This document shows positions 14,730 to 59,270 of a stretch of 64,000 nt of DNA, one piece after another. The position numbers and the translations under genes are program-made. The stretch is from Leucoraja erinacea. Taxonomy: Eukaryota. Location: NCBI RefSeq assembly GCF_028641065.1, contig NC_073401.1, forward strand, positions 22,196,001 to 22,260,000, written 5' to 3'. The notes under the pieces are model-generated. The model saw nothing but the letters and a program-made list of their open reading frames with translations. It was not told where the DNA came from and did not search any database. Position 1 is the stretch's first letter. Each line of letters starts with the position of its first letter.

Positions 14730-14940
14730 CGAGCCCCGCTGGCCCCGGATTAATGGCTCGCACCAGCTTTCCAGATGGTCTGCGGAGACTCGGCCCCGGC
14801 AGTAAGTCAAATCATGCCTCGTTTGGAGAAAAACACGTTGGCCATTGACCTTCTGACAGCAATGATTGGCTGCCGAAGCGTGGGAAACGCCAAGAAACTC
14901 GCACTCACGCTTTGCCTTATGGATTTGGAGCTATATATGT
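14730..14940 (+). promoter_or_regulatory. HES5-type Notch promoter module (locus A)
   Basis: CAGATG at 14772, ATTGG, CGTGGGAA 14879-14886 + 15 nt + CACTCACG, TATATAT at 14932. Confidence 0.8.
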
Positions 14941-14990
14941 AGAGAGCGTTGGAAAGAACTGCAGGAGACGAGAGCTTTGAGTATTTCAAC

Positions 14991-15461
14991 GTGACTTCAA
15001 TCAATATCTACATCAGCAATGATCAACCCAACATCGCAGTGGAGGCAAGAATAAATATGTTTACATTTGTAAATGAATGGAATGGGCAATACTTGAATAA
15101 TATTGCATAATATTCATCAACCGATGTTTTCGCCCCGCATAAACACTAAGAAAAATTATATATTTTTTCCCGAAAACAAACTTTTCTGACATTATTCTAT
15201 TTTGATCATCTCTCAATCAACGATTCTTCGGCAGAATGGTCGTGAGCAGGCCCGCTTTGCAGTGACAGTTCGCTTTATGACGACAGTGTGGTCCAAGAAG
15301 AAAATCCCCAACTATTAGAGCACTGTTCAAACCCAGCAGAAGTCTTGGCATCGCACCCCCACTTGTCACCCTGCCAGACCGAGTCAAACATTGACAGTCC
15401 GGAACAGCAAATCCGCGCAGAGCGGGAACATAATGGCATGTCGCAGAACTGGGGGGACTGA
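14991..15461 (+). pseudogene. Degenerate HES5-derived locus A
   Basis: GTG ACT TCA ATC AAT resembles the ATG ACT CCT GCC AAT start of copy 1. ttgcagtgacagttcgctttatgacgac resembles the Orange-domain DNA ttgcaggaggctcttcgatttttctcgac. It ends TGG GGG GAC TGA where TGG AGA CCC TGG (WRPW) is expected. No bHLH exon is recognisable. Confidence 0.5.
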
Positions 15462-18117
15462 CACTTGGACAAAACAAAATCACTGGAGATGTACTTTGTG
15501 GTGAAACGGTATTCCGTTGGGATGAATATTAGTAACATCGTTAAAAAGAAGTGTGTGTGTGTGCAGCAGTAAGTGCTATGTGTGTGTGCTATGTAATTGA
15601 ATAGTTATTTTCATACCGTTTGACTAATAATTTATAATATTTGTAGAATTTTTGAACTGCTATGTATGTAAATTCATAGCGAAAACAGCAGAAATCTCCA
15701 TATCGAGGAATGTATAGTTTGTTCTCATTAAGTTTTTATAACCATATCTGGCGATGTGATAGTAAACATGATTCATGTAACAGAAGCTTGTCATTAGAAG
15801 ACCTTGAACATTCTATTCTGATTATCAGTTTCGTGAATATGAAATGGGAAAAGTCTATGAACTTCCACCTATGGTTTCCCCACGGCAACCCGAGTTAATG
15901 ACAAAAACACCTGCAGACGTTTGAAATCAGAAATAAACGCAAACATGCTGGTAAAACTCAGCAGGTCAGGCTGCATGTGTGGAAGGAGAAAAATTAATGT
16001 TTCAATTCAGACGAAAGGTTTTTTTTATGGTCTTTCTTTTCGATTTTGTATCTGTAATCCATGTATAATTGCGTTTGTGTCTTCTGTCTGAATATGTGCC
16101 TATGCTGCTGCTTCAAACAAGATTTTTCATTGTGAGGTACAGGTATATCACCATACTTGTGCACATGACAATAAACTGGACGATGAAAGTTTAGACCTGA
16201 AAATTTCACGTCTCGGGCTCTTTATCCATAGATGCTGCTTGACCAGCTATTTTTTTTTCATAATTTGTATGGTATTCTTAAAATTAGTTTGGGATGTTAA
16301 TTTGCTACGGTGTGCGAAAAATAACCCTTATTTCGAATAAGCAGAGCCACAAACCTTCTTTTGAAAGAGGTGGCTACAATCATTTAAAGAGATATTCTCA
16401 TTCTTATTTATGCATCGATTGATCTGTTGTGATAATGATATTGTTATCTGAAATTATGGTCTATGTTAGATATCAAATGTTATGGGTGTTTACAGCCTAA
16501 TGCACTGCTGCCATGTCTCATGAAATACATTTAAACTTGCTGCCTAAATGTAACTTGATATAAATTGTTATAATCACAAATTAAAAATATTTTCAAGATG
16601 TCTTCAAATGGAATGGATTGTACAAATACTGGATTACCTTATTTCACACATTTTATTTTCCTCTCACCACTGAGTTGTGATGGAGCCTTTCTCTCCACCC
16701 GAATCCTTAGTGGGAATTGTCTTGCTCACACATCCTTGTCATGTTTATATTCAGGATTTGAAGACAATTAATTATATATTGTGGCTTGAGCTCCCAACTA
16801 AGTATTTCATTTTGAGGTCTCTTGAGGTTGATCTAAACTCAAAAATGCTGCTTTTGTTTTCTTAAGTTAAATATTTTATTTGCTTAGAACTAAGAGGCAG
16901 CATCGTGACTCGGGTACAAGAGCCACGGCCCCACAGCACCAGTGACTCGAGATCAATCTTGACAAATAGTGCTATCTGTGTGAATTTTTAATGTGTTTCT
17001 TGTGACTACATGAGTTTCCTTTGGATGCTCCAGTTTACTATAACATTCCACAATGTTCCAGGGTGAGTTCCAAAAAAGTGAGATTCATGGTTAATGTGGG
17101 TTCTGTGTGATAAACGGTCTGTTTCTGTACCGAATTATTCTGATTCTATCAATCTTGCAAAAACAGAAATTACAATCCGCAATCAATATAGTTCTTGTTC
17201 TGTGTATTATACCCAAACTCACTAGCATACAACATGGACTAGAACCTCTAATGTGATCAGACAGCACTCTTACACCATGCCGTTCCTCAAAGACCCATTG
17301 CATCAGATGCATCCTGCTTATGAATGTCACAGTAAATACCCTGGAAACTTGGAGTGGGTTAGACTGTAACATTTGGTGACTGACAACTCCAGTTGGAAGT
17401 TGCAGGCAGATTACATGGCTGCTTTTATCCAGTCAGTGCAGATAGAATCTGTTTTTTCCCTCATGAGAGTTAGCATGTAAAAACTCAATGTCCTGTTTTA
17501 GTGGCTTACTTGAATAAAATAGAATGGTAATGCACTATTCTCACAGTGGAAAGAAACATTCATCAAGGGTTGTAACATGCTATCATTGAACCTTGGACAG
17601 CAAGCAGAAGCACTGAGGTTCCAGGCATATGGAAAATACTAAACCAGGGTATCCTTCGTTATTAGCATCCAGGCAACATTCTAGTGGCTGTTAATCAGTA
17701 CAAGTGAGAAAATATTTGGCAAATGGCATTGAACAACAAAGCAGAAAATAAACCTGAAATCTCCCCACTCTCCTGAACATGCAGAAACACATTTCAGTCA
17801 GTTTGTTCATTGCGTAAAGACTTTCTGAGCATAGATTGTTTTCCTTCAGGAGCATGGCACGTGGAAGTGATGTGACCTGCTTGGTCAAAATATACTGGCA
17901 AAGCTCAGGAGATAGGTAGAAACTCAGCATGTAATTTAACTTAGTATTTACATACCAGAATGGCAAAGACCTACTAAGGTTCACTCCACACTTTTCTGGA
18001 CAAAATGAAAGATGGTCAGTTATTGATGATAGCGGTCTAATGAAATACAGGTCATAGTCAGGGAGTAAACCCTAAATATTTGCAGCAGGAGTTTAATAAC
18101 CAACTTATTTTCAATTA

Positions 18118-18437
18118 NNNNNNNNNNNNNNNNNNNNNNNNNNNNNNNNNNNNNNNNNNNNNNNNNNNNNNNNNNNNNNNNNNNNNNNNNNNNNNNNNNN
18201 NNNNNNNNNNNNNNNNNNNNNNNNNNNNNNNNNNNNNNNNNNNNNNNNNNNNNNNNNNNNNNNNNNNNNNNNNNNNNNNNNNNNNNNNNNNNNNNNNNNN
18301 NNNNNNNNNNNNNNNNNNNNNNNNNNNNNNNNNNNNNNNNNNNNNNNNNNNNNNNNNNNNNNNNNNNNNNNNNNNNNNNNNNNNNNNNNNNNNNNNNNNN
18401 NNNNNNNNNNNNNNNNNNNNNNNNNNNNNNNNNNNNN
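18118..18437. other. Assembly gap
   Basis: N run. Confidence 1.
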
Positions 18438-21400
18438 CAGATTTTGTTTGGCAGTGATAGCTTGGTATTTCTATCTGCTGGTACAGATCTAGTCCCCACC
18501 CCCTGACTGCATGGTGAAGTATACAAAAGGGCTGGAAAAGGTTTTGGTCTTACTCCAACAACTCTAGTCTGGTACCCGAGGTGAACATATAGATGCTGCG
18601 ACCACCCACCGCTACAATGGGTAATGTACAGTAAACAATTAATGTACCAGAAGGTCTTTGGGATGTGGATGGAAACCAGGGCACCTGAAGAAAACTCACA
18701 CAGTCGTAGGGAGAGCATGCAAATTCCACACACATATAACTTGATGTCACGTTCAAACCCAGTTTGCCCAATCTATGAGACAGCAGCAGTAACACTGTCC
18801 TCCTGTACTGTCTGAATGCACTATTGGTTGAAGATTCCCATGAGCCAAATGCAAGTACGGGGAAACTTCTGCAGATTTTTCTTGTTAGTTTGTGGGAGGA
18901 GTTATAATTTGTGGTGATGAGCAAAATGCACCTCAAATATGGACTGAATTCAGTTTGGTAGCGGTAATGAGTCCCGGAGATGAAAAGGAACAGACCTGCA
19001 AACAGACCTGACCTTTCTGTGCATGCTCTCTAACTATCGTAAACAGTTTAAGATTAGTCTCAATAATGGAACCTGCCATTTGGAATTTAAACAGAGGAAA
19101 TGTGTTTGTCAATCATATCTCCACTCTTGTCTCTCTGGAAATGTTTCAGTTTGGTTCCACAATCACGATTCAGTTTGGATCATAGGGGTCTTATCAGAAA
19201 CATTCCTATGTTTTCCAAGCTCAGCAAGCTAAAGTAAGTAAATCACAAGCTTCACTATTTTATTTTACAAAATTGAAAAGATCTCGTTTTCTGGCGTTGC
19301 AATTCGCTGCCTTCCAAAAGGACACCTGGCTAAATGTCAATTGGCCACTTGAATATGCTCCCAAAAGGGAAAAAGGCAAGAATTTGCAGAACTGTGTGAA
19401 GTGGGAGTGAGAGGTAGAAGTGAGTAGCTGGATTTCTCTGCAGAGAGCCAGAACGTACTTGAGGGGTCGAATGGTTTTGAATCTGTCACCTTATTCTTTG
19501 TACCAAAGCGAATCATTTCAGATTTCCCCCATTACACCCCATCTGCCTTTTTTTTTGTTCAATTCGTAACCCTCTGCAAACTAATTGAGCCCTACCTTTG
19601 TAATATCGGCAATGAGTTTCGGCCTCAGGTTTTGTCTGCTGGCGGTGTTGCGAAATGCTCGGTTGTGCGATGTGATATAAAGCTGTTATATAAAGGGATT
19701 TTTATTGTTGCTGTAAATACATTGCTTGAAATTCGGCGGAGAGGAGAATTCCTTGTTACGAGTTTTTTTTAATAGCTGTACGCGTTTTTTTGACACTTGA
19801 GATTCCTTTCCCGCAGGCACGGGTTATTGAAGGCAGGCACGGGTTATTGATTGGGGCCGATCATCCATGATCACAATGAATGGCGGTGCTGTCTCGAAGG
19901 GCCGAATGGCCTCCTCCTGCATCTATTTTCTATGTTTCTATGTTTCTGACACGTGTAAGCCAATTCACAACACTAACAAACCAACATGTTATGAATGCTA
20001 AGCACACAAGTCAGTATGTAAAACAAAAACCTAAATGTTGAAAATCTGCAACTATAACTAAAGATACTGGAAATACTCAGCAGGTAATTATTTGTGGAGA
20101 AAAAAAAACAGTATTAATGTTTCAAGTCAAAAACACCTTCCGCCAAAACTGGGATAGAGAGATTAGAAAAGTTATTTTCACTCTTCCCGACACTTTCTCT
20201 GCAACTTAAATGCTTTTTAAAACTGTTCTCCAGTTCCGTGGAACGGTCACCGAATTGAAGATGCACTCTCTTTCCATATAGGTTGCCTGGCCTACTGAGT
20301 GTTTCCATCAGTTTTGATTTTTGTTTTCGAATTCCAGCGTCCAAATGTCTTTTTTTTAATTGTGGGTTTGGAGAACGGCACTTCTAACTTGGGTCTCTTA
20401 TCAAAACTGGGTATCTTAAGTATGTATAGGAAAGAACTGCAGATGCTGGTTTAAACCGAACATATGACACAAAAAGCTGGAGCAACTCAGCGGGTCAGAT
20501 GGCATCTCTGGATAGAAGGAATGGGTGACAGTCAGTCTGAACGTCACGTTTCGGGTCGAGGCCCTTCTCCATACTGACCGTCACCCATTCCTTTACTCCA
20601 GGGATGCCGTCTGACCCGCTAAGTTATCTTAGGTTTGTACACCACTGTGTACAAAGGACAGAAAAATACATATAACCACAGAAGAGTGAATTGTAAAGTG
20701 ATTACACGGGAAACAAGACAGGTGTATAATAGCTTGAGGCAACAGTGGTAGTCTCTGGAAAGGACTGGCAGAGAGAAAATGCAGAAACGATCGAAGCTCT
20801 TGTTTACTATCTTTAAGCCGTACGCCGTTCTCGTGTATGGTTCTTTTGGTGTGAGATTCTCCCCAGCTCCTTCGTTTTACTGTTTCCATCTTCACCAGTA
20901 ATGTTCTTTCTCCGTGTTGAAGATGCATCACGGGTTTAACTTTAATCTTTCTGGTTCCCTACAGTTGTAGACTGACTGGCCCGTCTTGTAACATGTGTTT
21001 CTTTTAACACCCTCGCCGTGGCAAGCTACAAAGAGTTAAACATTCAGCCCAGCCAGCGTTATCCATCATTATGTGTGAACCCAAGCCAATTAGAAACGGC
21101 AAATTCTCGTGCAGTCGAGAAACATAGATCTACTTAATTTGAATTCTCCGGACACGTGCCGCCCTGTGATCATCCCGAAAGGAAGGGGGGGGGGGGGGGG
21201 GGGGGGGGTGTTAGTTTTATGGAGTGGCAAGGGTTTGAGGTGTCGCTGGAAGGATTTGCGAAGTATCCCACCACAATAAATCTACTGACGCTGAACCTAT
21301 TTACGTGTGAATGAATCACAGTTCCGCTATTCCCGTAACCACGTCGTTTATGAATTCGAGTACATTTTCCCATTTTTATTTTAGCCATGCTACAAGTTTA

Positions 21401-22419
21401 ACTTTAAATCGCCAGAATGAAAAATGTTTTGGTCTGTCCCAGGAGAGTTGTGGATGGAGCGGGTGGTTATTTGCCGTGGTTCCTAACCCTTGGGGGCGCG
21501 CTGGCTTTTACGCCCAGCGCTTTCGCATGGTTATATTTTCCGGAGAATAGTTCAAATAGTAATCATTGGAAAATGAATTTCAGCAAAAAATGATTGTAGA
21601 ACTCAAATACGAAACAACACGGCGAGCAATTACAATGCAGAATTAATCCAACGTGTGTGACTGCGGTACGATTAGGAGGTGCTAGACGCATGTAAAATCA
21701 TTGATTTGTTTGGAGTTCAAATAAAAATATTCATGGCAGAATATTACAGGAAATACAAACCAGTACCTAGCTTTCTTCACATTCATATTGTCATCAAGTC
21801 ATAGATAAATTGATCTTCAATGAACCGCCAGGGTCTCTGATGTTGATACAGAGGCGCGCAGCTGTGACCAACCTATGACCCTCCCTGTGCTGAGATTTGC
21901 CTCAGTTTCCCACGTGCCGCGGACAAAGGAATCCGTTCACTTGCTGTGATTCACTGAGGCGCGAATGAGTTCATTCATCCGAGCGGGGGGCGGGGGAGAG
22001 CTCGGGGTGGGCAGTCTACAATAGACTGTAAATCCAAAAGATCACTCCCCTCCCTCAGCGCCAGCTCTTCAAAGACCCGTGTCAGAAGAGGAAACAGTCA
22101 GACAACTTCTCTTTTCTAGCCTTTTTGCCACATTTAAATTTCAACGCCCTAGAAAAATGTGATTGAATTAGATCGTTGTTTTTAAATATAACTTGGATCC
22201 GAAAACTGAAATGGAAATCATTGCAACCGACAGGAAGTTATATGTTTGCATGTTTCTTTATTAAGCCCTGAGACTGTAATTAAAGGGAACTCACAAGTAT
22301 ATATCAACAAATAATCCATTTAGCTCTGAATTGAGGAGACGCGGTCGGCAGAGCTGATTGTTTTGGTCCAGTGCGGCTTGCCACGTGTGAGACCAATCTC
22401 TCCGCCTGTTCTCAGGACC

Positions 22420-22625
22420 TTACACGAGCTCCGCTGGCGAAGGATTACTGACTCACGCCACGGCTCCAGATGGTCCCCTTGAGAGCCGGCTCCAATAAAA
22501 AAAAAGTCAAATACTCAGTGGACAATTTTTCATTCAGAAAGAGAAGCTTCTCATTGTCTCTCTGGCCCCGGCGATTGGATTCCGAGTGTGGGAATCGGCT
22601 GGAAACTCGCACCCACACTTCTGTT
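22420..22625 (+). promoter_or_regulatory. HES5-type promoter module without TATA (locus B)
   Basis: CAGATG at 22467, CATTGT, ATTGG, TGTGGGAA 22587-22594 + 15 nt + CACCCACA. Followed by a possible exon-1 remnant (ATG at about 22697, gtatgt at about 22750) and CR1 insertions. Confidence 0.75.
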
Positions 22626-22825
22626 TTGATCTGAAGGGTTGTTGTTTTTGTTTGTGCCAGAGGCTGTATCTCTCCCTTCTCCCAGATGACATAATAATGG
22701 AAGACATTTCAGGGAAGGGAATCTTAGCTAAAAGCAGGGCAAAAATGCGGTATGTTCAGCATTAATTTACACTATTATTGCCCATAATATATAACGGCCA
22801 AAAAATAGGCCGGAATACTGTACAC

Positions 22826-23843
22826 AGAAATATAGAAAATAGGTGCAGGAGTAGGCCATTCGGCCCTTCGAGCCTGCACCGCCATTCAATATGATCATGG
22901 CTGATCATCTAACTCAGTACCCTGTACCTGCCTTCTCTCCATACCCTCTGATACCTTTAGCCACAAGGACCACATCTAACTCCCTCTTAAATATAGCCGA
23001 TGAACTGGCCTCAACTACCTTCTGTGGCAGAGAATTCCAGAGATTCGCCGCTCTGTGTCAAAAATGTTTTTTTCATCTCGGTCCTAAAAGATTTCCCCTT
23101 TATCCTTAAACAGTGACCCCTTGTACAGGGTTGAGGAAGACCAGGCACGGCATCCGGAAAGAGATATTGAAACTCTATACATGTGTTTGCCGATATGAAC
23201 CTTATCTGTACTCCCTCTATGGCAAGAATGTCCTTCCTCAGATTACGAGACCAAAACTGTAGCAATACTCCAGGTGTGGTCTCACCAAGACCCTGTACAA
23301 CTGCAGTAGAACCTCCCTGCTCCTATACTCAAATCCTTGTGCTATGAATGCTAACATATCATTCGCTTTCTTTTCCGGAGTACAGAGAAGGTTCACCAGA
23401 CTGATTCCTGTGATGTCAGGACTTTAATATGAAGAAAGACTGGATAGATTCGATCTTATAGAAACTTACAAAATTCTTAAAGGGTTGGACAGGCTAGATG
23501 CAGGAAGATTGTTCTCGATGTTGGGGAAGTCCAGAACAGGGGGTCACAGTTTAAGGATAAGGGGGAAATACTTTAGGATCGAGATGAGAAAAACATTTTT
23601 CACACAGAGAGTGGTGAATCTCTGGAATTATCTGCCACAGAATGTAGTTGAGGCCAGTTTATTAGCTATATTTAAGAGGGAGTTAGATGTGGCCCTTGTG
23701 GCTAAAGGGATCAGAAGTATGGAGAGAAGGCAGGAACAGGATATTGAGTTGGATGATCAGCCATGATCACATTGAATGGCGGTGCAGGCTCGAAGGGCCG
23801 AATGAACCTACTCCTGCACCTATTTTCTATGTTTCGATGTTTC
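22826..23843. mobile_element. CR1 composite: 22826-23123 (-), 23196-23372 (-), 23377-23843 (+)
   Basis: Young CR1 subfamily (LDRLDAGRLF..RTEMRK..VVNLWN) in both orientations. Confidence 0.9.
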
Positions 23844-24029
23844 TATTCCCTCGAAAGGATCGAGTTCCCGACGGACTAACTGAGACGCAAACCCAAATCG
23901 AGCAGCTCGCTCCCAAGCTGTTTGACTTTTGAATTGCGCCTTTTGGACGACCCTCTAGTGTACTCCTGACAGAAGCACCAGATGTGGGCCTTGCCCATAT
24001 CCCACCATAGCCACACGGAGTGAGGTAAC

Positions 24030-24355: not shown

Positions 24356-24504
24356 TTTTATTGTCCAAGTGGTCCAGTTCAGAGTGGACCCCTCTTCAAT
24401 GTCTCCTTTAAGTTGGCTTCGCTTTTCATCTACCTGTGCTTTCAATGAATAGGGCACAAGTTGCTGTTCACCGTGGATATGTCTGGCCCCTAGTTTTATA
24501 TGCG

Positions 24505-29944: not shown

Positions 29945-30127
29945 CTGTCCAGATGGCCCGCGAAGATTCCCACGCAAAGCAATGTCAAAGCCTATCATTA
30001 GTTTGGCATTTACAAGGCAGCGGTTGGCCCATTGTCCTTCTGAAAGCGCTCGTTGGCCAGAGAGTGTGGGAAACCTCATGAAACAAGGACTCCCGCTCTT
30101 TTTCATGTAAATTCCACGGTATAAATA
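29945..30127 (+). promoter_or_regulatory. HES5 copy 1 promoter (E-box, Sox-like CATTGT, RBPJ paired-type site, TATA)
   Basis: CAGATG at 29950, CATTGT at 30030, TGTGGGAA 30065-30072 + 15 nt + GACTCCCG, TATAAATA at 30120. Confidence 0.85.
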
Positions 30128-30204: not shown

Positions 30205-31148
30205 ATGACTCCTGCCAATGCTTCTGGTGTTATTACTGGGGAATACTCGGAAGAAAAGTTCATGGCCAAACAGAAAAGCAAAGTAAGCGCAAGAGACAGG
30301 CGGCAGAAAAATGGGTCAATAGTCTGGGCGAACCTTAACAAACTTTGTGAATTGTCACCTCGAACAAAACTAAAATCTTAATTCGTTTTACTTTTAGATC
30401 ATGAAGATAACAATCGAGAAAAGGCGCCGAGATCGGATAAACAGCAGCATCAACCAGCTAAAGACTCTACTGGGAAGAGAGTTTCAAACGGAAGAACCGA
30501 ACATGAAACTGGAGAAAGCCGACATTCTGAAAATGACAGTGAATTACCTGAAGTATCACAACCAACAGCTCAGAGGTAAACCGATTGATAAGCGGTGATT
30601 AGATTATAGGCCATTCTGCTCAATCTAAAACAGACGCAAAAAGCTGGAGTAACTCAGTGGGACAGGCAGCATCTCTGGAGAGAATTGGGTGACATTCCGG
30701 GTCGAGACTCTTCCTCAGAATCGACACGAAACGTCATCCATTCCTTCTCTCCAGAAATGCTTGAACCTGTCCCGCTGAGTTACTCCAGCTTTTTGTGCCT
30801 ATCGTTGGTTTAAACAAGCATCTGCAATTCACTTCCTACACATTTTGTCTGCTCAATCTAACTCTTATCTTCGTTTCTTTTGCAGCAAGCTGTACGACTG
30901 GTAACCCGGAGCGAGACTATAACGAAGGATACTCCCGGTGTTTGCAGGAGGCTCTTCGATTTTTCTCGACCCACGAAGGCAAAAGCGACATTCAGAAGAA
31001 GCTGGTGACACGCTTCCAAAGGATACAGCCACGGTGCCCGGCCAAAGGTCTACTTTACGGTGTATATCTTCCTTACACTGCTTCTTGTCAGACTGGCACT
31101 GAGCAAACACCCCAGTCCAACCCCGCGGCTCTCTGGAGACCCTGGTAA
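30205..31148 (+). CDS. HES5: HES5-like bHLH-Orange repressor (copy 1), 172 aa, 3 exons
   Basis: Exons 30205-30282, 30398-30575 and 30886-31148 (GT-AG; phases 0, 1). bHLH KITIEKRRRDRINSSINQLKTLL...EKADILKMTVNYLK, Orange DYNEGYSRCLQEALRF, C-terminal WRPW-stop. TATAAATA at 30120; ATTAAA at 31578. Confidence 0.93.
30627..30843. mobile_element. Short foldback element made of two inverted Penelope termini, in HES5 intron 2
   Basis: aaaaagctggagtaactcag...ctgagttactccagcttttt inverted arms. Similar or partial copies near 2075-2195, 4760-4990, 6260-6390, 15910-16250, 20035-20345, 20430-20630, 34830-34945, 45260-45355, 49460-49650, 50007-50130, 52770-52960, 62240-62310 and 63543-63660. Confidence 0.8.
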
Positions 31149-41056: not shown

Positions 41057-42161
41057 GTGGGGGCATGTGCGTGCGTGTGTGGGAGTGCGGGGGGGTGGGG
41101 GCTTCACTATGAAGTTAAAGTCCATGGAAGACCCATCCCACCGTCGCAATCAATATTTGCTTAAGGAATGAGGAATGTGGACAATCGATCCACATTCTTG
41201 CACATTCTGAGCTTGCAAACTTTCCAGCATTTTTACAAAACTCTAATGATCACCTTCGCCACGAAGACGAAGTTTATCAATCGGTTATCCCCCATGAACT
41301 TTGGAATTACATAATTTTATATTAATTTCCCGAAAGTCAAAAGAAAATAGCCAATATTTACTGAATCATTGTTTATTAAACCTCTTACAGAAGTCTACAA
41401 GATGGACATCAAGATGTCAGATTACTCCACATCCCTCTTGTACAGGAATCTACATGGAGAAAAACGCCCGACATTGTTTGCCATCATTTCAGCTATATAA
41501 CACACATTCATTAAGAATATACAGATTAATTTGAGAAACTCAAAAAACATTATAGAACAAGTCAGATATTATGACATTACATATCCGCTAATATAACATC
41601 CCTTGAACTAACTGCCCCGCCTCTTCAATATGAAGAAACTTCATTAATCGTGAGGAGACGTGTTAACCCTTCCATTACCACAGCAACCCCATTACAGCTC
41701 TGTTAAAACTATAAACTTTTAGACCTTTCAAAAAATAAAAGGCGATGAGGATTGAAACATCAAATAATCAGTTTCTAAAACTGATCATGCGGATATTTCT
41801 TCTGGAAAAGCCTATTTGCTGAGTTAAAAAAAATCAGTCTGCTGGAGTATACAATGGTAAACATAGGCACTCTGGACCGAATAGTTCCCTCTGCTGTAAT
41901 TCTACACGGTATGGTTAGATATTGCATACCACTTTCTACCGAAAATACAAACTGCACTTATCAAGGCAAATCTTCCATCTCTGACGCAGTTGAACTGGTA
42001 GGAATTGGAATGAAGAATTTCATCTACATTTTTGTTCTGGCGTTATCTTAACTACTCGACATATTTACTATAAACACACAATTATTATGAAGCATCTACA
42101 AATATTGTAGAACATGAATCCATATGATATGACCATACAGGTAAAGACGGGAAATATCCCT

Positions 42162-42807
42162 TTACAAACTATTCAGATCCTTCATTGTGAAGGTTTTACT
42201 ATCACTTCTTCCATTCAGGAATACAGTATCACACCGGAGCAGGTTATTCCGGTCGCTTCCCTCGTTGCGTGGGTTCAATTTTGCCAGGTGCCCGAGAATG
42301 CGGTACCTCTCGCTCATTCTCTTGCATATTTCTGGATGCAGAATCGTGGAGATTATCTGCTGAAAATATAAAAGGAGCAACATTCGTAAATACCCAGATG
42401 GGAACGCGAAGCTGCATGTTTAAGCGCCGCAGTGTTTTTTAATAGGATGCATCCACTGATGTTCATGTTACCTGGAATACACGATGTAATGGCTTGAATG
42501 CGACTGTTTCTGCCATAGGCTCCAGACAGACTGCGGATGGCTGTTGCGGGATCAATTCATTCTCCGCACTTGACTTCGACCCTTTATTTACACCAACTGA
42601 AAAAATAAGAAACACACCAGTAAGTCAGAGGCATAAGTCACACGCTCTAATTCATACAAATATATACGGCAAGTTCCAACTCAGCATATCTTACACATAA
42701 ATTCACCCACCTTCTGCATTCTTGAAGGAAGGATTCTGTTTCTTCCATTGCCTGAGACTCGCACCTACGCTCTGGATCCGACCCAAACCCTCCTCCAAAA
42801 ACAACAT
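42162..42807 (-). CDS. Candidate novel 3-exon gene (139 aa, no recognised domain) at a HES5-derived locus; alternatively a spliced pseudogene or lncRNA
   Basis: Starts at the first ATG after the TATA box. Exons 42711-42807, 42472-42596 and 42162-42359 have donors AAG|gtgggt and CAG|gtaaca and polypyrimidine-cag acceptors. The spliced frame has no internal stop. Confidence 0.5.
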
Positions 42808-42860
42808 CCAGCAACAGGCTGGCAGCCTCAGTCTGTTGCAGTTTGTCCAAACGACGCCCC

Positions 42861-43102
42861 TATTTATAGCTCGGATTGAAAGCGGAGAAGCGTGAGTCCG
42901 GGTTTCTCGGCGTTTCCCACACCTCGGCAGCCAATCGTTGCAGTCAAGGGGACAATGGCTAATGTGTTTCTTTTGAATGAGATATTATCCACACTGTTTG
43001 ACGGGTTTGTGCAGTCAATTCATGGAACCATCTGGAGAACTGGTATGAGCCAATAATCCCTGCTCGCAGTTTATCAGAAACTAAGACAAATTCTCCCACG
43101 TG
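42861..43102 (-). promoter_or_regulatory. Intact HES5-type Notch promoter module (locus D)
   Basis: CAGATG 43034-43029, CATTGT, ATTGG, TGTGGGAA 42921-42914 + 15 nt + GACTCACG, TATAAATA 42868-42861. Confidence 0.85.
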
Positions 43103-48809: not shown

Positions 48810-49760
48810 TGGAATTACTGGCTCAGTCCGGCACTCCAGATGGTCCATTGAGACTCTGTGAGTCAAACGATGCGATGATTTACTCATTGAGAACACATTG
48901 ACTGTCGTGTCTCTGACAGGGGCAATCGGTTCCAGTGTGTGGGAAACGCTGAGAAACCCGGGCTCATGCTTCTACCACTTAAGTGTCCACTAAGAACTCT
49001 AAGTACATAAGACACTGGATAGTGCGGCAACATATCGAGCCCTGCTTGCAATTGTTTAAAGGCCAAGAGATGGCTGTAGGAACATCATTAGCACTGGAAA
49101 TCAATTCCTCCCGAGGTATTACAAATTGTGAGTGAAATGATATTTAAGATATAACGAATTGATTATTTCTGGGAAATATTAATAATTAATCTACCCGTCG
49201 GTGTTTTTGAGTAACACCAATATCTATATATGAGACTCTGTGAGTCAAACGATGCGATGATTTACTCATTGAGAACACATTGACTGTCGTGTCTCTGACA
49301 GGGGCAATCGGTTCCAGTGTGTGGGAAACGCTGAGAAACCCGGGCTCATGCTTCTACCACTTAAGTGTCCACTAAGAACTCTAAGTACATAAGACATTGG
49401 ATAGAGCGGTAACATATCGTGCCCTGCTTGCAATTGTTTAAAGGCCAAGAAACAAATAAAGACACAACGTGCTGGAATAACTCTGCATGTCAGGTGGCAT
49501 ATGTGGAGAACGTGGATATGCAACGTTTTGGGTTAGGACCCTTCTTCTGACCCAACCCGAAACGTTGGCTATCCATGCTCTCCAGAGATGGTGCCTGACC
49601 CGCTGAGTTATTATTTTTTTTGTATACCAATATCGGCAGCTCCATGTTTCTGCAAAATTAGAAGCAATGCAAGCGCCGAAAACTCCTGTCCGAAACAAAA
49701 CCCGAGAATTTTACTGAGCTCAACATGCAGTCAATGGTTTTTCAGCTCATGGCTGGGAGA
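48810..49760 (+). pseudogene. Degenerate HES5-derived locus E with duplicated promoter
   Basis: CAGATG at 48837; TGTGGGAA at 48938 + 15 nt + GGCTCATG. Exon-1-like MAVGTSLALEINSSRGITN at 49070-49127 then gtgagt (wrong phase). Exon-2-like vestige cgagaatttt-actgagctcaacatgcag (REF..TELNMQ versus REFQTEEPNMK) near 49703-49730. Confidence 0.55.
48849..49450 (+). repeat. 220-bp direct duplication (48849-49068 / 49231-49450)
   Basis: Direct comparison shows 4 mismatches, all in the last ~55 bp. Confidence 0.95.
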
Positions 49761-51207
49761 TACCGGCGAAGCTGTAACAATGGAGGGCATTTGCAAGTCC
49801 TGTAGAGTCGCTAGTTGGAATGTTTGAAGCACCAGGATTTCAGTCTGATGTCCAATATTATTTCAGAATTGAATCAGTGGCATTACATTTTCACATTGGG
49901 TTACATGTGTACCTTCATAAAAAAATATGGCTGTCTTCCACTATTTTTAGTTCCATAACGCTGCATTCACGTTATATCTAGTCAGAAGTTGGAATGTTGA
50001 GTCGCCGGAGAGAAGGAATGGGTGACGTTTCGGGTCTGAAGAAGGGCCTGGACCCGAAACGTCAACCATTCATTCTCGAGAGAGAGGCAGCTTGCACCGC
50101 TAAGATGCTCCAGCTTTTTGTGTCTATCTCCAATCAATACATTGCTGATCGCACACGATAATCCCCTATTTTCAAACGTAAAATATGAGTGGTGTTATCC
50201 AATTAAATTCTGAACAAAAATACATGTTCTGTGGTGATGTTGGTAGAGTGGGCGGTGGCAAGAAGAAGAGAGAGGTGATTTGGTTTCGGAGGAGTCTTTC
50301 AACGTGGTTTCTTAGTGTAGTTAACATCTCGTTGGCTATATGCAACAGGATATATCCCTGGAACCTGGTTTATGCCGCCTCGGTAACGCCCAGCAGATGG
50401 AAATCCGTTATTTACAGACAGAGCCCCCTCTGGTGCCGCCGTCCGTTGCCCCACCTGAACAAACTCCAACATCGCATATACTAAGTGGGTAAAAAAGACG
50501 AAGCATGGTAAATGTTATCAAGCAAAAATTAAAATATTGTAAATGCCGGAAATATGGAATTAAAAAAAAAGCTCTAATACTTAAAAGGCGTGGCAGGGTG
50601 CGCAGAGTGAGCAGATCCATTGTATAATTGTCATATGTACCGACATCGGAACAATGAAATTGTTACATGCAGCAGCATAACAAGCATGTGAATACAATAT
50701 TCATAGATACCATATAATAAGAAACGATTCAATACATTAATAACCCGAATACAAGTGCAAATGAATCGATAAATGTAACATTCTGTCAACTGCATGTTTT
50801 ATTGTTGTAGTTCTGCTATTTTACAACACTAAGCATTCACGAGAACATTTCTACTAAATTTCATCGCTTGACAGACAGTGTATTGGAAGAACGAGCAGCG
50901 TACACTGAGTTATTAATGAGCGAAACATTTCAGGTGGTCATAGCAATAATTCCGAGGAGATTTTTTGACACAGATCAACGCGGAAACGTCTATAACTATT
51001 GACGATAGAGCAACTATTCTTTGTAGACACTGGGGTATGCAGATCGATTGTCGAAGCAAGTCAGCAGTCACGTCAAGAGTGTTTTATTGTCATATCTCCC
51101 AGGTAGAACAATGACATACTTGCTTGCTGCAGCACAACAGAATATGTAAACATAGTACACTGTAAATAATATGATAAACGAGAGAAAAAAAGTTCAGTGT
51201 GTATATA

Positions 51208-51769
51208 NNNNNNNNNNNNNNNNNNNNNNNNNNNNNNNNNNNNNNNNNNNNNNNNNNNNNNNNNNNNNNNNNNNNNNNNNNNNNNNNNNNNNNNNNNNNN
51301 NNNNNNNNNNNNNNNNNNNNNNNNNNNNNNNNNNNNNNNNNNNNNNNNNNNNNNNNNNNNNNNNNNNNNNNNNNNNNNNNNNNNNNNNNNNNNNNNNNNN
51401 NNNNNNNNNNNNNNNNNNNNNNNNNNNNNNNNNNNNNNNNNNNNNNNNNNNNNNNNTGGCCCTTGTGGCTAAAGGGATCAGAGGGTATGGAGAGAAGGCA
51501 GGTACGGGATACTGAGTTGGATGATCAGCCATGATCATATTGAATGGCGGTGCAGGCTCGAAGGGCCGAATAGCCTACTCCNNNNNNNNNNNNNNNNNNN
51601 NNNNNNNNNNNNNNNNNNNNNNNNNNNNNNNNNNNNNNNNNNNNNNNNNNNNNNNNNNNNNNNNNNNNNNNNNNNNNNNNNNNNNNNNNNNNNNNNNNNN
51701 NNNNNNNNNNNNNNNNNNNNNNNNNNNNNNNNNNNNNNNNNNNNNNNNNNNNNNNNNNNNNNNNNNNNN
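51208..51769. other. Two assembly gaps (51208-51456, 51582-51769)
   Basis: N runs. Confidence 1.
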
Positions 51770-51794
51770 AGTGCAATAATTATAATAATAATAA

Positions 51795-52091
51795 CTAGAC
51801 TATGTGGGACCCGTTGGGTTGGTCCCCCAACGCAATATCCCACCTCTCCATCAATTCCAATATTGGTGGCCAATAGGGGGCGCTTTATGTAGCTCTAGTA
51901 TGGGTGTTGTGGGCTGAAAGCAAATAACTTTTATTTTTCATCGATGGGAAAAATCCTCTTGTCCTGCACAGCGGAGGGGGACTCTGTGGAAGATGGCCAA
52001 AAATCACAGCCTTAAGTGGCAGGTATTTTTTTCTAAAATCAATGTACAGAACAATAGGAAGTGGTCAAGATCAGACTTTTATTAATATAGA
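51795..52091 (-). mobile_element. Complete short non-autonomous Helitron-like element
   Basis: On the minus strand it begins TCTATATTAATAAAA and ends with a GGGACC..GGTCCC hairpin plus CTAG; inserted between A and T with no TSD. Confidence 0.75.
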
Positions 52092-53586
52092 TAATAATAA
52101 TCGTTTATTGTAGTTCAGGGCTTATGACGTTGTAGGGTTGAATAGCCTGATGGCTGTAGGGAAGAAACTGTTCCTGAACATGAACGTTACAGTTCTCAGG
52201 CTCATGTACCTTCTTCCCGATGGCAGTGGTGAGATGAGTGTGTGGCCAGGATATGATCTTTGGCCAGGATGGTGCGGGTCTCTGTCGTTGTAGCAAACGG
52301 GTCCTTTACGTTTTTTTTGGTTAGACATTTCCCACTTCAAATCGAGAGCGCGTGACCGTAATCATTAAGAATATAATGAAGTCAATCAGGTAAAAGTCCG
52401 GAAATATATTTTAAGAAAGGACGTGGCGATATCTAAGGCGGGAGTTGTGTTGTACACCAGGAGACATCATGTTTTATTTGATATCACCATCACTTTCTCA
52501 CGGCCCTGAATTGACGCCAACTCCACAAGTGCTTTTTCGGAGACAGTGTGAAAGTTTGAAGAATCTGTCAACTGCCGACAATGAGTTGAAGCAACGTGCT
52601 AAAGAACACAGAACGTGTCAGATTTCTCGCTTTAGAAAATGTTTGATCGGGGCCCGTGTTGTCTGGAGTTTTACAACTCATTTATTTCTCCCACCACGCG
52701 ACAGATATTTTATGGACCAGCGCGTTACTTCGGTTATAGAGAAAGGATACTCTTGTTATAGACGCTAGATGCTGAAGTAACTCAGCGGGTCAGGCAGCAT
52801 CTCAGGAGAAAATAATTAGGTGAAGTTTCAGGTCGAGACCCTTCAGACCAGTCTGAAGAAGGGTATTGGTACCTATCTTTTTCTCCAGAGATGCTGCCTG
52901 ACCCGCTGTTACTCCAGCATTTTGTGTTTACCTTCGCTGTAAACCAATCTTGCGGTTCCTTCCTGTTAGTAATGCTCTCCAATGCTCTAGAGATAATAAC
53001 AAATGATACCAAACATGCCGAAGTTGGAGATGATGGTTTCCTCAGCTTTGTGTATAATTCTGGACTGTTAACCGATTCTGAATGAATATCTTTAGCGTTA
53101 TGGTGACCCCGGCGGTCCCATCGCGCACATGTGGACTTCTACCGTTATAAACAATAAGAAAATGTGAATATTGAACGAAAAACAGCACGATCGTACACCG
53201 TATCAAAAATGTCCTTAATTACACGTTGTTACCAATAAACACTTCAATATTTTTTTGCTCCGGAACATTTTTGTAGTTTAATTGCATTAGCTTCATCATA
53301 ATGTGTCCTTGTCATAGTGCAGTAACTGTTTTGATGTGCTCGAGTCTTATGCTGTCGCTCAGCATACTCGCTGTATACATATAGCGAAATTCAGCTCTGG
53401 CTCTCAGCTCCAGTCTGAACATCGGGTCACCCCTTCCTGCGTAACGGCAGCAGCCAGTCTCTGGTCACGGTGAATCATTACCGCTGGGCTGCTGCCTGCA
53501 AGTCAAGTGAAGAGCATCGGGGCAGGGAAGGCGACTTTAAAATCACGTCAGATACAATATCTATTAGAGAATCTTGGAGTGTTATT

Positions 53587-53813
53587 ATGCCCCTGTCTCA
53601 CTTAGAAAACCTGAACGGAAACCTCTGGAGACTTTGGGCCCCACTCAAGGTTTCCGTGCGGTTCCCGGAGGTTGCAGGTGGTTGCCGGAGGTTGCAGGTA
53701 GTGGAAGCAGGTAGGGAGACTGACAAAAACCTCCGGGAACCGCACGAAACCTTGGGTGGGGCGCAAAGTCTCCAGAGGTTTCCGTTCAGGTTTCCTAAGT
53801 GGGACAGGGGCAT
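53587..53813. mobile_element. MITE with ~85-bp terminal inverted repeats (PIF/Harbinger-like ends)
   Basis: atgcccctgtctcacttag...cctaagtgggacaggggcat, near-perfect arms. Confidence 0.85.
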
Positions 53814-54119
53814 TCTTGGTTCTTGGTTCTTGGTTTCTTGGTCCTCCAAAATATTCCAAATTGAATTTAGACTGGAGGTGGCATTACCCGCATCGCAGCG
53901 ATAACTTTCTAAGCGTGAGGATTTTTTTCTCGCTGGGATTTTGTCAACCTCCGGGAGACTAGGGTGGGAGCGGGATGAGGGGCTGGGCTACAGGGAGGCA
54001 GGTGGGTCAAGTCGCTGATATAATGTTTGACTAAACTTTATGACGTATCTTAATTGTTAAATGGTTTCTAGCAGGGGCTATATTCTGAAATTAAGCACGT
54101 CGTTGAATTTCTAACGTAA

Positions 54120-54630
54120 AGCATAAAGTGCTGGAGGAATTTAACGGATCGTGTAGTCTGTGGTGGGAAATAGACGCGCTCGTTTCGGGTCGGGACCCTT
54201 CAAAGAGATGTGGAGGTGAGAACAATATATTAAGTGTTGGGCCGATACAGGGAGGGGGTAGGGTGATTTGCAGATGTGTGTAGATCTTTACAAAGGCTAG
54301 AGGTGAAAAAGGAGACACTAAGGTGTCAGATGAGGAAAGAGGAGGATGAATGAAATGTAGAGCTACAGGGAGGGATGTGAATGGAGGGAGGTGGGAGGTG
54401 GATCAAAGGTGGGATAAAAGGAAACATAGAACTAGGTGATGGAAGGAGCAGGGCGACTGGGATGGTGGGAAATGGTGGCAGAGATTAGTCCGCACCAGGG
54501 TGGGGGCCGCGTGGGTAAGATAGGGAGGGGGGGGGGGGGGGGGGAGATTAGAGAGTTCTAATCTTTAAGACTACCCAAGTATATGATGGATGATATAATA
54601 TAATATGAGATGCTGTTGTTCCAGTTTGTG
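54120..54630 (-). mobile_element. Degenerate Penelope 3' fragment
   Basis: KLEQQHLI remnant, purine-rich tract and terminal-repeat motifs. Confidence 0.65.
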
Positions 54631-57600
54631 TGAGTTATAATGCGTCGTTACATTTAAACAATCATACACTCTGTCGGTTTTTCTCCAAAAATAATTAATG
54701 ATTTTACTTGAAAGAGACAACTCGCTTACACGTTCGCATAGGAGAATATCTTCCTTGCCCAATTGATATTTTTACGGCAGAGATAGATAGATTCTTGATT
54801 AGCACGAGTGTCAGGGGTTATGGGGAGAAGGCAGGAGAATGGGGTTAGGAGGAAGAGATAGACCAGCCTAGATGGGCCGAATTGCCTAATTCTTCACCTA
54901 TCCCCTATGACCTCACCTATTTATTATTTTAATGACTGTACCCATTGATATGTTATTAGATGAATCAAATCACGTTTATTATGAAATATATTGACAATAT
55001 TACTTGTTCAAATATTCTCAATTACTGCATCTTAAATGTAGAACCATCAACTACAAGTAAATCAGACCAGTTTCTCAGCGACCCCAACTCATTCTAGTTA
55101 AAAGCATTCCAGCAATACGGTTTATTGTCCAAGTCAGGTCTCGGCCTCCGACCTGCATGTTTCAACGGCACGTGGACATTTCCAGTGCTTATCATTCATT
55201 TCTAAGGCATTAATTTTAACGAGACAACGATTGTCCTAATTCATAGACCCCCCCCCCCCCTCTTTCTCCCCTCCCGGTTCCCCAATGATGGACAAACTGA
55301 TGTCAACATTTGTGGCAGATATCTGGCGAATGCATTTTTGTATCAATTCTCGGATTTATAACTCTGAATATTAACGGAGAAAGAGCAGCGGGGATATACT
55401 TGGGAATATTTCTATAGTTTGTGACTTGAGCGATTATGTCCCAAGTATCGGTTATTAGCCCAAAGCACTTTTTTTGGGATTCGTTTTCTTTGCTCTGCAA
55501 ACCATTCTGAGGAGCACAGTGTTACTGGGCGGAGAGTTGCGTGGATTTAAATGTTGCCAACATAGGTGCATTGTTGTTGCACTGGACTCGATCTGAACTA
55601 TACCCTCGCCCATGATGCGAAGTGTGAGAAGAATCGGATCTAAGAGCCACGAAGCGCTGGAACTTGCAGCAAAGGGGTTAAAATGAAACCTGCCAGGACA
55701 GATGCGACAACGGGTTAATGAAGCATTTAGATATCATTAGGAAGGAACAATTTTTTTTCTCGAAAGTACTGCGCATCAGTTCCCACGATCTGCTTGTTAG
55801 ATCCTTTCAATTTCATTCCGACTGAATAGAGGCATTGAGGCGGCGCAGCTGTTAGAACCGACCTTCCCTAATCTTCGACGCGTGGGAAAGCAGACTCTAC
55901 CAAACCCCATCACACGCCAGAAGTGGGCTATAAATAGGGACACACTCGCAGATTACATCTGCAACAGGGCACAAGGCCAGATGCGTGCATCGTCAGTATA
56001 TCACGTAAAAAGTCAACAGTGGTCAATGACTTTCACTTATTCCCCGCTGCTGTTCGGTGCTCCCATTGCGTGGATCTCAGCAACGTTTCAAACATAAGGG
56101 ATAGACTTACGTCAGGGTCGACACTTCGAAAACCGTCCATCGATTATTGATTGATTATTATTAATAACATATATCGATAGCCAAACTTTTGAGGACGTGA
56201 TTGGACATTTAATTGTGCCCACGAGACAAATACTGGAATTAAACTTCTGGAAAACATGCTAAAACACGCAGATTCTGGAAACCTGAAATTAAATTTGAAA
56301 AGGCTTCTCCTTGATTAACTCAAAAACTCCATGTTGTTGATAATAATTTCTCTGACGATTGTTTCTAAGACCTCACCTATCACCAATGAAAATCTGACCA
56401 GCCTGTTGCCACTAGGCATGTCCATATATTCGTTTTGCCCATTCTAATCTTTAAGCACCTCCCACAAAAATATGGCAAATTGGCAAATTATTTCAAGCCC
56501 TTATTATATCTGTATACATCCCCTTTATTAACGAACCCCTGATGCAAGGATCGGCCACAAACACACTCTGAGCATTGCCATCTTTTGAGTCCATTCTACC
56601 TGTCACTTGTTACCCCATCCATCAGCTCTTCTGTTGGGAACTGATATTTTAACAGCTTCCGATTCCTTAGTAAACAACAAAACAAAGTGTTTATATGTTT
56701 TCTAGCTTTGCCTCTATGCGTGAGGTGTCTTTTATAATTTCTCACTATTTACATACTGGCAAAGGACTCTTATGCTCTCCTATCTTTAATCACATACGCT
56801 CTCTTTGGCAGATGTTTTCTGCTTCACCTCCCTGCTTCCCTCTGATATTCTATTTCTGTAGTAGGATATTTTTAAACTATGGAAAAATACAATCCATATT
56901 GTGTTTCGAATAAATACATCATAGATTTATCTCCCTTTAGTCCCACATAGGTGTCATTTTTAATAGTCCCCAGAGCGCACCTAATTTTGCTTAGAGAAAT
57001 CACTTCACATGTGTCATATGCCTTTTTCATTTTCATCATATCCTTCAAGGATCTCTGGCTTTGGTTGAAGCCTCACTTGTTGGAATCGACTTAACCTGCA
57101 CTGTAAAATCGTTCTCATTAAAGCTCACTTAATGGCCATTACAATTTTTCCCTGTTAATCATTGGATGCAGGGCCTTCACCTGATATGCCGACCAGCCAT
57201 TTGCCTCCACAGATTCTGCTTAACCAGCTGACTTCTTCCAGCTGTTTGCTTTTACTTCAGATTGCAGCATTTCCCACCACATTGAAATTAGCCCCACTTT
57301 AAATTTAAATTGTACCAAAGTACAAATTGTACTTAATAGCACAGTTTCTTCATTGTTCTACTGTTTCTCCATTAGCAACCCGTACCCGGTCATAATGTCC
57401 AAATGTGTTGTGATGTTCACAGATAGATCATACATAGAAAAGGAATTGTGGATACAATTGTTTATTTGAAAATAAAATAAAAATCATAATTTTAACATGG
57501 AATTAAATTGTGGTACACAATATTTTATTTACAAACAAAAATAATAATATGACAATATACTTAGATCAGCATTGTTACAATGCAGTTAAATATAGAACTG

Positions 57601-58216
57601 AGAATAAGGCCACCTTCCGGTTTCACATTGCTGCAATGCAGATATTCATACATGAGATAGGTAACAATAAGTTGCAATATTATCCAGGAAATATTGGAAA
57701 TGTATAACTCATTTCCACTTTGAAAATGAAATCCAGTAGTAGAATTCCCATCATTTCAAGAGTACTTAAAACATCCAATTAATTTATAGCGGAGTTTTGA
57801 AAAGCTCACTATATTGCAATTCACTGATACACTCGTGTATATCATGATATGTAAACATACATACAAACAACGAACATCCTTTAAAACGATGCAAATATTC
57901 CTCAACAAGAAGACTACCAGCAACACACCAGCGACATTCCTTTATAAAAGAACAACAGGCAGTTCTGCATATAACAATAGGCAGCACAACCACCGAGTCG
58001 ACTGTCAGCTCAGGTATGATTTTCACCATCTACAATTACAGCGGAATATTTACATAATTTAAAATTAAATAAATCATATATTAAAAAAATGTCCATCTCC
58101 TTCAACGAAGAGTGGTCGATGTTATTTCTTCCATTGTAGAATACTGCTTACACCAGAGTACATCCCTGGCGCTTGATAAAACATCCTTCTGGCAAACATC
58201 TGCTGAAGTTAGAATT

Positions 58217-59007
58217 CTACCAGGGTCTCCAGAGCGCCGTGACTTTGGATTTAACTTCCTTTTTGGTGCCCGGTGGACACACAGAAGGATGCACGAGAGA
58301 AGAAATTGGCCTCGAGCCATTGGGCAGATCATAAGCTTTGTGCAAATACTTGACCAGTTTATTCTGAACGTCGATCTTGCTTTCCGGGGCGAAGGTAAAA
58401 TGCTGTATCTCCTGCAGACAGCGTGTGTATCCTTCCTTAAAATTGTGAGTTAGACTCTTGTTGTAGGTCACTGTAGATGAGAAGAAATTGAACAATTTAG
58501 AGGGGCGTTTGCGAGAGAGAGAAAAAAAAACTGACAATGTGGCGCTATTTATCAAACAATAGGGTTTCTATTTAAAAACACAAATTTAATTTAAAGACGG
58601 AAAGTTTATCCATTTTATAGTATTCTTTCAACTATTAATTACAAAAAATACAAGTACCTGTAAACATGCGTTGACTATGAAGTTTCAGGTAATTCACAGT
58701 CATCTCCAAAATGTCAGCTTTTTCCATTTTCATGTTTGGCTCTCCGTTCTGAAACTCTTCCCCCAGCAAAGACTTGAGTTGCCCGATGCTGCTGTTTATA
58801 CGATCTCGGCGTTTCTTCTCCACAATTGGCTTCATTAACTGGGGAAGTACAGGAAACATGAGTTTACACAGAACTCGAAAATTGGCTAAGAATGTTTGCA
58901 CATTTATTTCATTTAAAGGCAAAGCGACTTACTTTGTATTTTTCCTTTCGTGTGGCTTTTTCCTCTGGATGTTGTTTTGGGATAGCGCCAGGCATTCTAG
59001 GAGCCAT
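58217..59007 (-). CDS. HES5: HES5-like bHLH-Orange repressor (copy 2), 169 aa, 3 exons
   Basis: Exons 58933-59007, 58658-58838 and 58217-58470 (GT-AG; phases 0, 1). bHLH MKPIVEKKRRDRINSSIGQLKSLL...EKADILEMTVNYLK, Orange NFKEGYTRCLQE, WRPW-stop. TATAAATA at 59091-59098; AATAAA at 57524-57529. Confidence 0.95.
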
Positions 59008-59090
59008 AGGTTTGGAGGTTGATACCGCGAACACGGTGTGACTCGCCTCGTTCGGAGCGATTGTGCTGGGAGAAGCGAGACCTGCCCCTC

Positions 59091-59270
59091 TATTTATACC
59101 GCTCTCTGCCCACAAGACAGCGTGTGCCTGTTTTTCGTGATGTTTCCCACACTCGCCAGCCAATCATTACTGTCAGGGTGACAACAGCAGAAGCTTTTCT
59201 TTCTAAATGCTGAATTAAGGGCCGTTTTTAAGCTTTTGTCTGTGATCGTCTCTGAGGACCATCTGGACGG
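59091..59270 (-). promoter_or_regulatory. HES5 copy 2 promoter
   Basis: On the minus strand: CAGATG 59265-59260, ATTGG, TGTGGGAA 59151-59144 + 15 nt + GGCACACG, TATAAATA. Confidence 0.85.

Follow-up and report, generated by a model that had tools for sequence, protein, structure and literature searches.

What becomes of a Notch-type promoter once the gene that it served can no longer be recognized? A 64,000-nucleotide stretch of the Leucoraja erinacea genome (assembly GCF_028641065.1, contig NC_073401.1, positions 22,196,001 to 22,260,000; hereafter the window, in which positions are counted from the first letter) raises this question several times over. It carries seven copies of one promoter core, at places that we call A, B, C, D, E, E2 and F, and HES5 genes are intact at only two of them, C and F, a count on which a preliminary description of this DNA and our analysis agree. 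That description took the remaining loci for dead genes, the promoters of which are retained as shared enhancers, RBPJ/NICD sinks or promoters of long non-coding RNAs (lncRNAs). For locus D the first part of this account is not supported, as D is expressed like F and carries a coding-like frame of 139 codons. We give an even chance to the reading that D is a live, HES5-derived gene encoding a new predicted protein of 139 residues that has no bHLH (basic helix-loop-helix) domain, no Orange domain and no WRPW motif.

The case for a live gene begins with its transcript. Reads from five of the 24 listed runs were placed over 14555-32254 and 41100-59900; none of the runs was found on record as RNA, and all expression calls rest on read placement. 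Gene D (41360..42837, minus strand) yields a spliced transcript of ~1.25 kb with exons at 42837-42711, 42596-42472 and 42359 to ~41360 and an AATAAA signal at 41377. In the stranded run X22, sense depth across D is 3.54, 10.9 and 8.3 against 0-0.03 antisense, and the corresponding depths are 4.9, 7.94 and 7.19 for F, 3-9.4 for C and 0.2-1.6 for A; in run X18, which is unstranded and shallow, D and F lie at similarly low depth. Contigs from run X1 cover the D exons at depth 51-64, with neighbouring unique bins at 0. One of them starts 31 nucleotides below the D TATA box and ends exactly at the GT donor at 42710 (exon end 42711) with 106 letters left over; these fit 42596-42491, and we place intron 1 between 42711 and 42596 accordingly. 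A minor X1 contig (depth 9.6) keeps intron 2 and ends at 42333, an end point expected only with a donor at 42472 and an acceptor at 42359, and we therefore place intron 2 there. Both junctions are thus deduced from contig ends. The D promoter drives a spliced RNA about as abundant as that of the HES5 gene F, in keeping with the earlier proposal that some of these modules serve as promoters of RNA. Run X1 holds D and F transcripts with zero depth in the unique bins of C, and X22 holds all three, so members of the cluster are not always co-expressed.

The body of D also changes slowly and has the look of coding DNA. Compared with organism C, D diverges by 2.24% (61/2722) and F by 2.42%, against 4.10% (164/4000) for intergenic DNA (p 2e-5), a comparison that uses all eight X14 pieces displayed, four of them intergenic. 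The 139-codon open reading frame (ORF; 42162..42807, minus strand) starts at the first AUG and spans both introns; it contains a basic amphipathic stretch at about residues 65-81 and an NxxN motif at residue 103, and its top 11-residue hydrophobic moment is 0.85 near residue 66, a value given without a computed null. Only 14 of 20,000 shuffles of the region had any frame open over 138 codons. GC content by codon position is 0.49/0.39/0.54 in D, 0.49/0.42/0.54 in C and 0.48/0.35/0.52 in F, and a pattern like that of D arose in 42 of 3,000 stop-free shuffles and in 2 of 105 local stop-free frames. Among the between-species differences listed, all three that fall in the ORF are at third positions, and two are synonymous. 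The HES domains are missing from the predicted product: bHLH was matched in no frame of D, Orange scored below 0 with two local profiles, and there is no WRPW end, only decayed codons near 42300-42288 at the corresponding position, which the ORF overlaps in another frame. Pfam, run on the three exon pieces separately, gave nothing significant (best E 0.24).

Several points weigh against this reading of D. Only three ORF differences are visible among the listed rows, most rows being unseen, and three gap letters of X1 in 41800-42265 are unplaced. At 42306, within the ORF, organism C carries an additional 124 bases; as 124 is not a multiple of three, the last ~47 codons cannot be conserved in that organism unless the change is compensated. 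The first AUG stands in a weak context, and a second, strong AUG gives 16 codons. Locus A has no equivalent ORF and shows no protein similarity to D in the D frame. Homologues were sought with exons 2 and 3 separately, and the whole spliced protein was compared with local profiles only. No protein of 73-2000 residues has three 5-mers in common with exon 2, exon 3 gave two weak, long, unrelated-looking matches among 1.84 billion searched, and D has no match in the atlas, though several skates and rays are represented in the same database by their C and F proteins. The source of the RNA runs is a related organism, A, which differs from the window by ~1-2% at D. Low divergence at D may reflect mutation rate, and three short intergenic pieces diverge by only 1.8-2.3% (they were picked at 95% likeness, with an 86-nucleotide piece omitted). 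Finally, no HES5 protein profile matches D in any frame; with no protein-level signal, the HES5 origin of its body rests on weak DNA signals.

Much of this would also suit a pseudogene-derived lncRNA at D, and weakly at A, kept for its RNA or for the act of transcription, for instance by sharing regulators of the 3' untranslated region (UTR) with HES5 or by tuning the cluster in cis; the 139-codon frame would then be incidental or recently defunct. Beyond the frame-changing indel in organism C, the lack of a protein homologue for D and the strong second AUG with its short frame, this explanation gains from the fact that the best-kept HES5 remnant at D is the 3' UTR and from a stable hairpin in the 3' region (41740-41800, minus strand; z -4.5, 0/200 shuffles, best of 47 windows), although Rfam finds no family anywhere in the window, the hairpin included. 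Excerpts of PMC5577775 supply a precedent in lncRNAs that arose from lost coding genes. Against it, a first-AUG ORF of this length across both introns, the codon-position GC bias and the third-position differences are hard to obtain by chance, and we regard an lncRNA as a serious alternative that is nevertheless on the unlikely side.

The promoter that D has kept is one of a sharply defined set. GTGGGAA cores lie at 14880+, 22588+, 30066+, 42920-, 48939+, 49321+ and 59150-, so all seven described earlier are real, with positions that had included the preceding base. Six of them are independent: E2 (49231..49450, plus strand; RBPJ site at 49321) is a recent tandem copy of 48849-49068, 220 nucleotides long, 98% identical, shifted by 382 bp and without the E-box. 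A CCAGATGG E-box stands 103-122 nucleotides upstream of GTGGGAA (start to start) in six of the seven copies, much as had been reported, and the pattern CCAGATGG-N90..118-GTGGGAA occurs six times against 0.01 expected, a number that none of 100 shuffles reached. A profile built from the C and F promoters finds exactly these seven copies in 194 kb, with E values of 7e-19 to 4.5e-7 for the orphan modules (2e-17 for D) and 6.8 for the next match. The inverted partner of the RBPJ site does lie 15 nucleotides away and is degenerate; with two to three mismatches to TTCYCAC in every copy it is, judged by its letters, a cryptic rather than a canonical paired site. Accordingly, no copy has the two inverted YGTGRGAA sites of the canonical Su(H) paired-site plus A-box architecture (SPS+A), and in place of its proneural A box, RCAGSTG, six of the seven have CCAGATGG. 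Neurogenin/NeuroD/Atoh-type factors favour CAGATG. The element ggatta.tg.ctc, once thought common to the four orphans, is matched letter for letter in A, B and D and with a single mismatch in E, and it appears in degenerate form before F as well.

Module D (42863..43059, minus strand) comprises this upstream motif, an E-box at 43035-43028, an RBPJ site at 42920-42914, the cryptic partner and TATAAA at 42868-42863. Module A (14747..14937, plus strand) has the same order, with the upstream motif followed by an E-box at 14771-14778, an RBPJ site at 14880-14886, the cryptic partner at 14902-14908 and TATATA at 14932-14937. TATA boxes are also kept in module C (29949..30125, plus strand; E-box 29949, RBPJ 30066, TATA 30120), which is the promoter of the intact C-type HES5 gene, and in module F (59086..59290, minus strand; E-box 59266-59259, RBPJ 59150-59144). 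There is none in E2, in module B (22442..22620, plus strand; E-box 22466, RBPJ 22588) or in module E (48812..49128, plus strand; E-box 48836, RBPJ 48939), the last of which has an exon-1/donor-like region resembling that of D. All orphans keep 15/15 E-box and RBPJ bases against 45-58% elsewhere in the core; these motifs helped to define the modules, and the profile scan nonetheless yielded no motif-broken copy.

Downstream of the other orphan modules, little is left. The body of locus A (14965..15620, plus strand) has low sense transcription, a probable intron at ~15069-15204, a 3' block homologous to D and no long AUG-initiated ORF. Its depth in X22 is 0.23 and 1.59 in the sense direction and 0 antisense, with reads at 15036 and 15211-15359 and none at 15096-15202, and it diverges by 3.5%, the intergenic rate. 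A 71-codon frame has no Pfam match, and among its eight listed differences only one codon change is synonymous, so that no coding signal is seen at A. At the apparent acceptor (15200-15205, plus strand) the window has TG instead of AG; reads of organism A start directly behind this position, organism C has a difference at 15202, and loss of the splice site may be confined to the lineage of the window. The bin covering B (22225-22814) has depth 0 in X1, 0 in X22 and 0.84 in X2, without a clear transcript, and LINE (long interspersed nuclear element) fragments begin beside it at ~22820. The E bin (48624-49250) has depth 0 in three RNA runs and 46.5 in a DNA-sized run. The silence of B and E is that of a few samples, which does not prove it permanent. 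With motifs intact and neither TATA nor RNA, these two are best guessed to represent enhancer-like retention or recent silencing, and it is for B and E only that the enhancer role proposed earlier is our own best guess. Upstream of B, a CpG-rich segment (21850-22110) contains an RBPJ site overlapping CACGTG and a GC box; over the 2.3 kb around it, divergence from organism C is only 2.2%.

Could all of the orphan modules, D included, be kept solely as DNA enhancers for C and F, with the D RNA as a by-product? B and E, silent and TATA-less, still hold 15/15 motif bases, and YGTGGGAA occurs 19 times in the 48 kb of 14001-62000 against 3.6 expected from flanking DNA, a density about five times higher that suggests further RBPJ enhancers across the cluster. 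The same interval has nine copies of CGTGGGAA, against 0 in the flanks of the same contig. Published excerpts lend some precedent: most promoter retention of this kind is attributed to enhancers in PMC5577775, and stand-alone SPS+A modules are known from the fly complex (PMC3261227). Yet D keeps its TATA box, four splice sites and a polyadenylation signal, its RNA is mostly spliced (depth ~54 versus 9.6 for retention of intron 2), and divergence along its entire body is as slow as in F; we consider an exclusively enhancer-based explanation improbable. Elsewhere in the cluster, three GTGGGAA motifs lie within 310 bp at 60765-61076 (plus strand), 1.6-1.9 kb upstream of F, one of them overlapping CACGTG; this trio is likely a distal enhancer.

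What links the body of D to HES5 is a set of faint DNA traces. The coding remnants previously placed at A, B, D and E were not recovered by blastn/tblastn, nhmmer or HES5 protein profiles, and what survives of that claim is weak similarity in position-anchored DNA tests, mainly at D and absent at B. In these tests, whose 2,000 nulls include self-hits, D exon 2 is ~50% identical to F and C (19 and 10 of 2,000 nulls, respectively) and its WRPW-to-UTR block stands at 8/2,000; at A the equivalent block stands at 68/2,000 and exon 2 is at the random level. The D 3' block against the F 3' UTR is reached by 0/250 nulls. Among 26 local tests, three beat all 250 nulls (F-D 3', D-A 3' and D-E exon 1), two are marginal (4 and 7 of 250) and the others are null. 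The A-D 3' block and the D-E exon-1/donor region, which is all that E shares with D, each beat 250/250 random segments. Translation of D in an 'ancestral frame' gave no higher score than the other frames did, and no further copy of the D body was found in the genome. Two Orange-like matches seen by eye in D were rejected, as their frames are incompatible and both failed hidden Markov model tests.

The orphan promoters are thus far better kept than the coding parts, as the preliminary description had held: 15/15 motif bases stand against ~50% identity in D exon 2 and a random level at A. Between C and F, the order is the opposite, with 72% identity in exon 2 and 58-62% in the promoter core; orphan cores are 49-61% identical to those of C and F. 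In an unrooted tree of the six cores (227 columns), C and F split from A, B, D and E at 99/97, and the groupings D+F (p-AU 0.025) and A+C (0.013) are rejected. The transcribed A and D sit on short branches (0.23, 0.21), the silent B and E on long ones (0.56, 0.46). The split, together with the shared A-D and D-E blocks, suggests one old sister family, copied from a single ancestral non-HES5 gene, rather than four separate deaths. As the orphan promoters are about as diverged as C and F, the split of which is ancient (see below), constraint on them is probably old. Neutral decay of whole-gene duplicates, or service as an RBPJ/NICD sink, could claim the silence of B and E in the runs placed, their long promoter branches and the intergenic rate of the A body (3.5%), but we think it most improbable. 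Under decay, exon 2, with its 72% identity between C and F, should stay easier to recognize than the promoter (58%), and the reverse is observed; neutral evolution, which the preliminary description had set against its own proposal, is thus rejected for the modules and already contradicted for D. As sinks, four extra sites would be negligible where flanking DNA has ~2 GTGGGAA in 10 kb, a density that extrapolates to ~4e5 sites in the genome.

We propose that a HES5 duplicate retained its promoter, its three-exon layout and a 3' block as the coding sequence was reshaped into a new frame, and that copies of this remodelled duplicate then gave rise to A, B, D and E. In Notch-receiving cells, D would be driven by RBPJ/NICD at the strong site, aided by the cryptic partner, and by a bHLH activator at CAGATG, and D is predicted to switch on together with HES5 under Notch and proneural factors. 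As its product would lack the DNA-binding and co-repressor motifs, it could not bind DNA or Groucho/TLE as HES5 does; most likely, it would act as a feedback modulator of the same pathway through protein contact. A would be a fading copy, and B and E, having lost TATA and transcript, would remain as enhancer-like pairs of motifs or as copies silenced not long ago.

The two intact genes anchor this family. Gene C (30205..31148, plus strand) encodes 172 residues in exons 30205-30282, 30398-30574 and 30885-31148, has a SINE (short interspersed nuclear element) in intron 2, and its splicing is seen as a contig in run X2. Gene F (58217..59007, minus strand) encodes 169 residues in exons 59007-58933, 58838-58658 and 58470-58217 and has sense-strand RNA. 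Both have three exons, a C-terminal WRPW and a bHLH domain (PF00010; E 6e-14 for F, 2.5e-15 for C). An Orange domain is called in both by local profile (62 and 48 bits for C and F); with PF07527, C scores 26.4 bits (cut-off 25.3) and F falls under the cut-off at 18.9 bits (E 0.0018). Identity to named skate HES-5-like proteins is 98%, and between the two proteins it is 51%; they fall into separate clades, each with shark and ray orthologues. As the C clade includes a Callorhinchus protein, the split between C and F predates the chimaera-elasmobranch split as well as that of sharks and rays. Chimaeras and elasmobranchs parted ~400 million years ago.

The window is preceded, at a distance of ~55-65 kb, by exons of PPIL2 (E 7e-15), and a C-type lectin exon follows just downstream; this is the ppil2-linked hes5 locus noted, in excerpts of PMC8320183, for elephant shark and coelacanth. 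A protein search of the genome found no third HES5 among its best candidates. PANK4-type linkage was rejected, all pantothenate-kinase matches being on other contigs and none on that of the window. On contig C30 (8,271,200-8,273,130), a four-exon, non-HES5-type HES gene, which we take to be of the HES2/HES3 type, lies ~28 kb from a pantothenate-kinase gene; no HES5 was seen near it in 70 kb, unlike the pank4-linked hes5 of many vertebrates. Two mobile-element-like features also fall within the window. One, at 32675-34505, has 517-nucleotide inverted arms, a 353-residue frame and a weak GIY-YIG match and is presumably Penelope-like; the other, at 26223-28066, is a long inverted repeat with 583-nucleotide arms (95%) resembling a miniature inverted-repeat transposable element or a DNA transposon.

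Vertebrate HES5 clusters are described as arrays of bHLH repressors. If our reading of D is correct, jawed vertebrates would have in it a Notch output of a new kind, expressed as strongly as its HES5 neighbour, in which the Notch promoter was kept and every HES domain lost, and it would be a clear case of a regulatory module that outlived its gene and was reused. As the six copies range from live coding through live recoded and fading to silent, the transitions from promoter to enhancer and from gene to new gene could be tested at one locus. HES5 clusters, cryptic paired sites and the survival of promoters after gene loss are already known; in the open-access literature, we found no description of an expressed, probably recoded sister gene, or of such modules, in a vertebrate HES5 cluster.

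Comparison with known systems places each part of this locus. It resembles the ppil2-hes5 locus in having PPIL2 nearby and, in C and F, HES5-like genes with shark and ray orthologues. The excerpted text of PMC8320183 names one hes5 beside ppil2 and does not mention promoters; the present locus has two such genes and, in addition, four further promoter modules and one expressed non-HES gene. The modules share with the cryptic paired site of Hes5 (PMC7685452) and with fly SPS+A (PMC3261227), as excerpted, a strong RBPJ site, an abnormal reverse partner 15 nucleotides away and a nearby E-box. The fly module differs in its canonical partner and its RCAGSTG E-box, where ours is CAGATG, and the isolated Hes5 site is, in the excerpt of PMC7685452, not dimer-dependent.

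A bolder comparison is with the Bearded proteins, which, in excerpts of PMC4575448 and PMC12678834, are encoded in the arthropod E(spl) complex, among its bHLH-Orange genes, and work by way of Neuralized. The predicted D protein resembles that class in being a small, non-bHLH product with a Notch-type promoter, encoded among bHLH-Orange genes, and in its amphipathic helix, and it would have the small size and helix only if translated; D differs in being in a vertebrate, apparently derived from HES5 itself, and without a sequence-family match. The genome does have a Neuralized-like NHR domain. NxxN is a motif given for Bearded proteins, but a single one, such as that at residue 103 of D, is common by chance at this protein size, and the 802-nucleotide UTR of D has 0 of 3 motifs (Brd, GY and K boxes); with no family match either, D is not classed as Bearded. 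That this HES5 cluster of a cartilaginous fish independently rebuilt the two-gene-class layout of the arthropod complex, with D as a Bearded-like, frameshift-recoded HES5 duplicate that is co-induced and dampens Neuralized-dependent Delta/Jagged signalling, is a long shot. XIST and JPX, as described in excerpts of PMC5577775, offer a parallel of a different kind, having likewise inherited promoter and splicing from an eroded coding gene with paralogues alive nearby. D departs from them by carrying, in a new frame, a long ORF of coding-like character, and the orphans in that they seem to have been amplified as a family.

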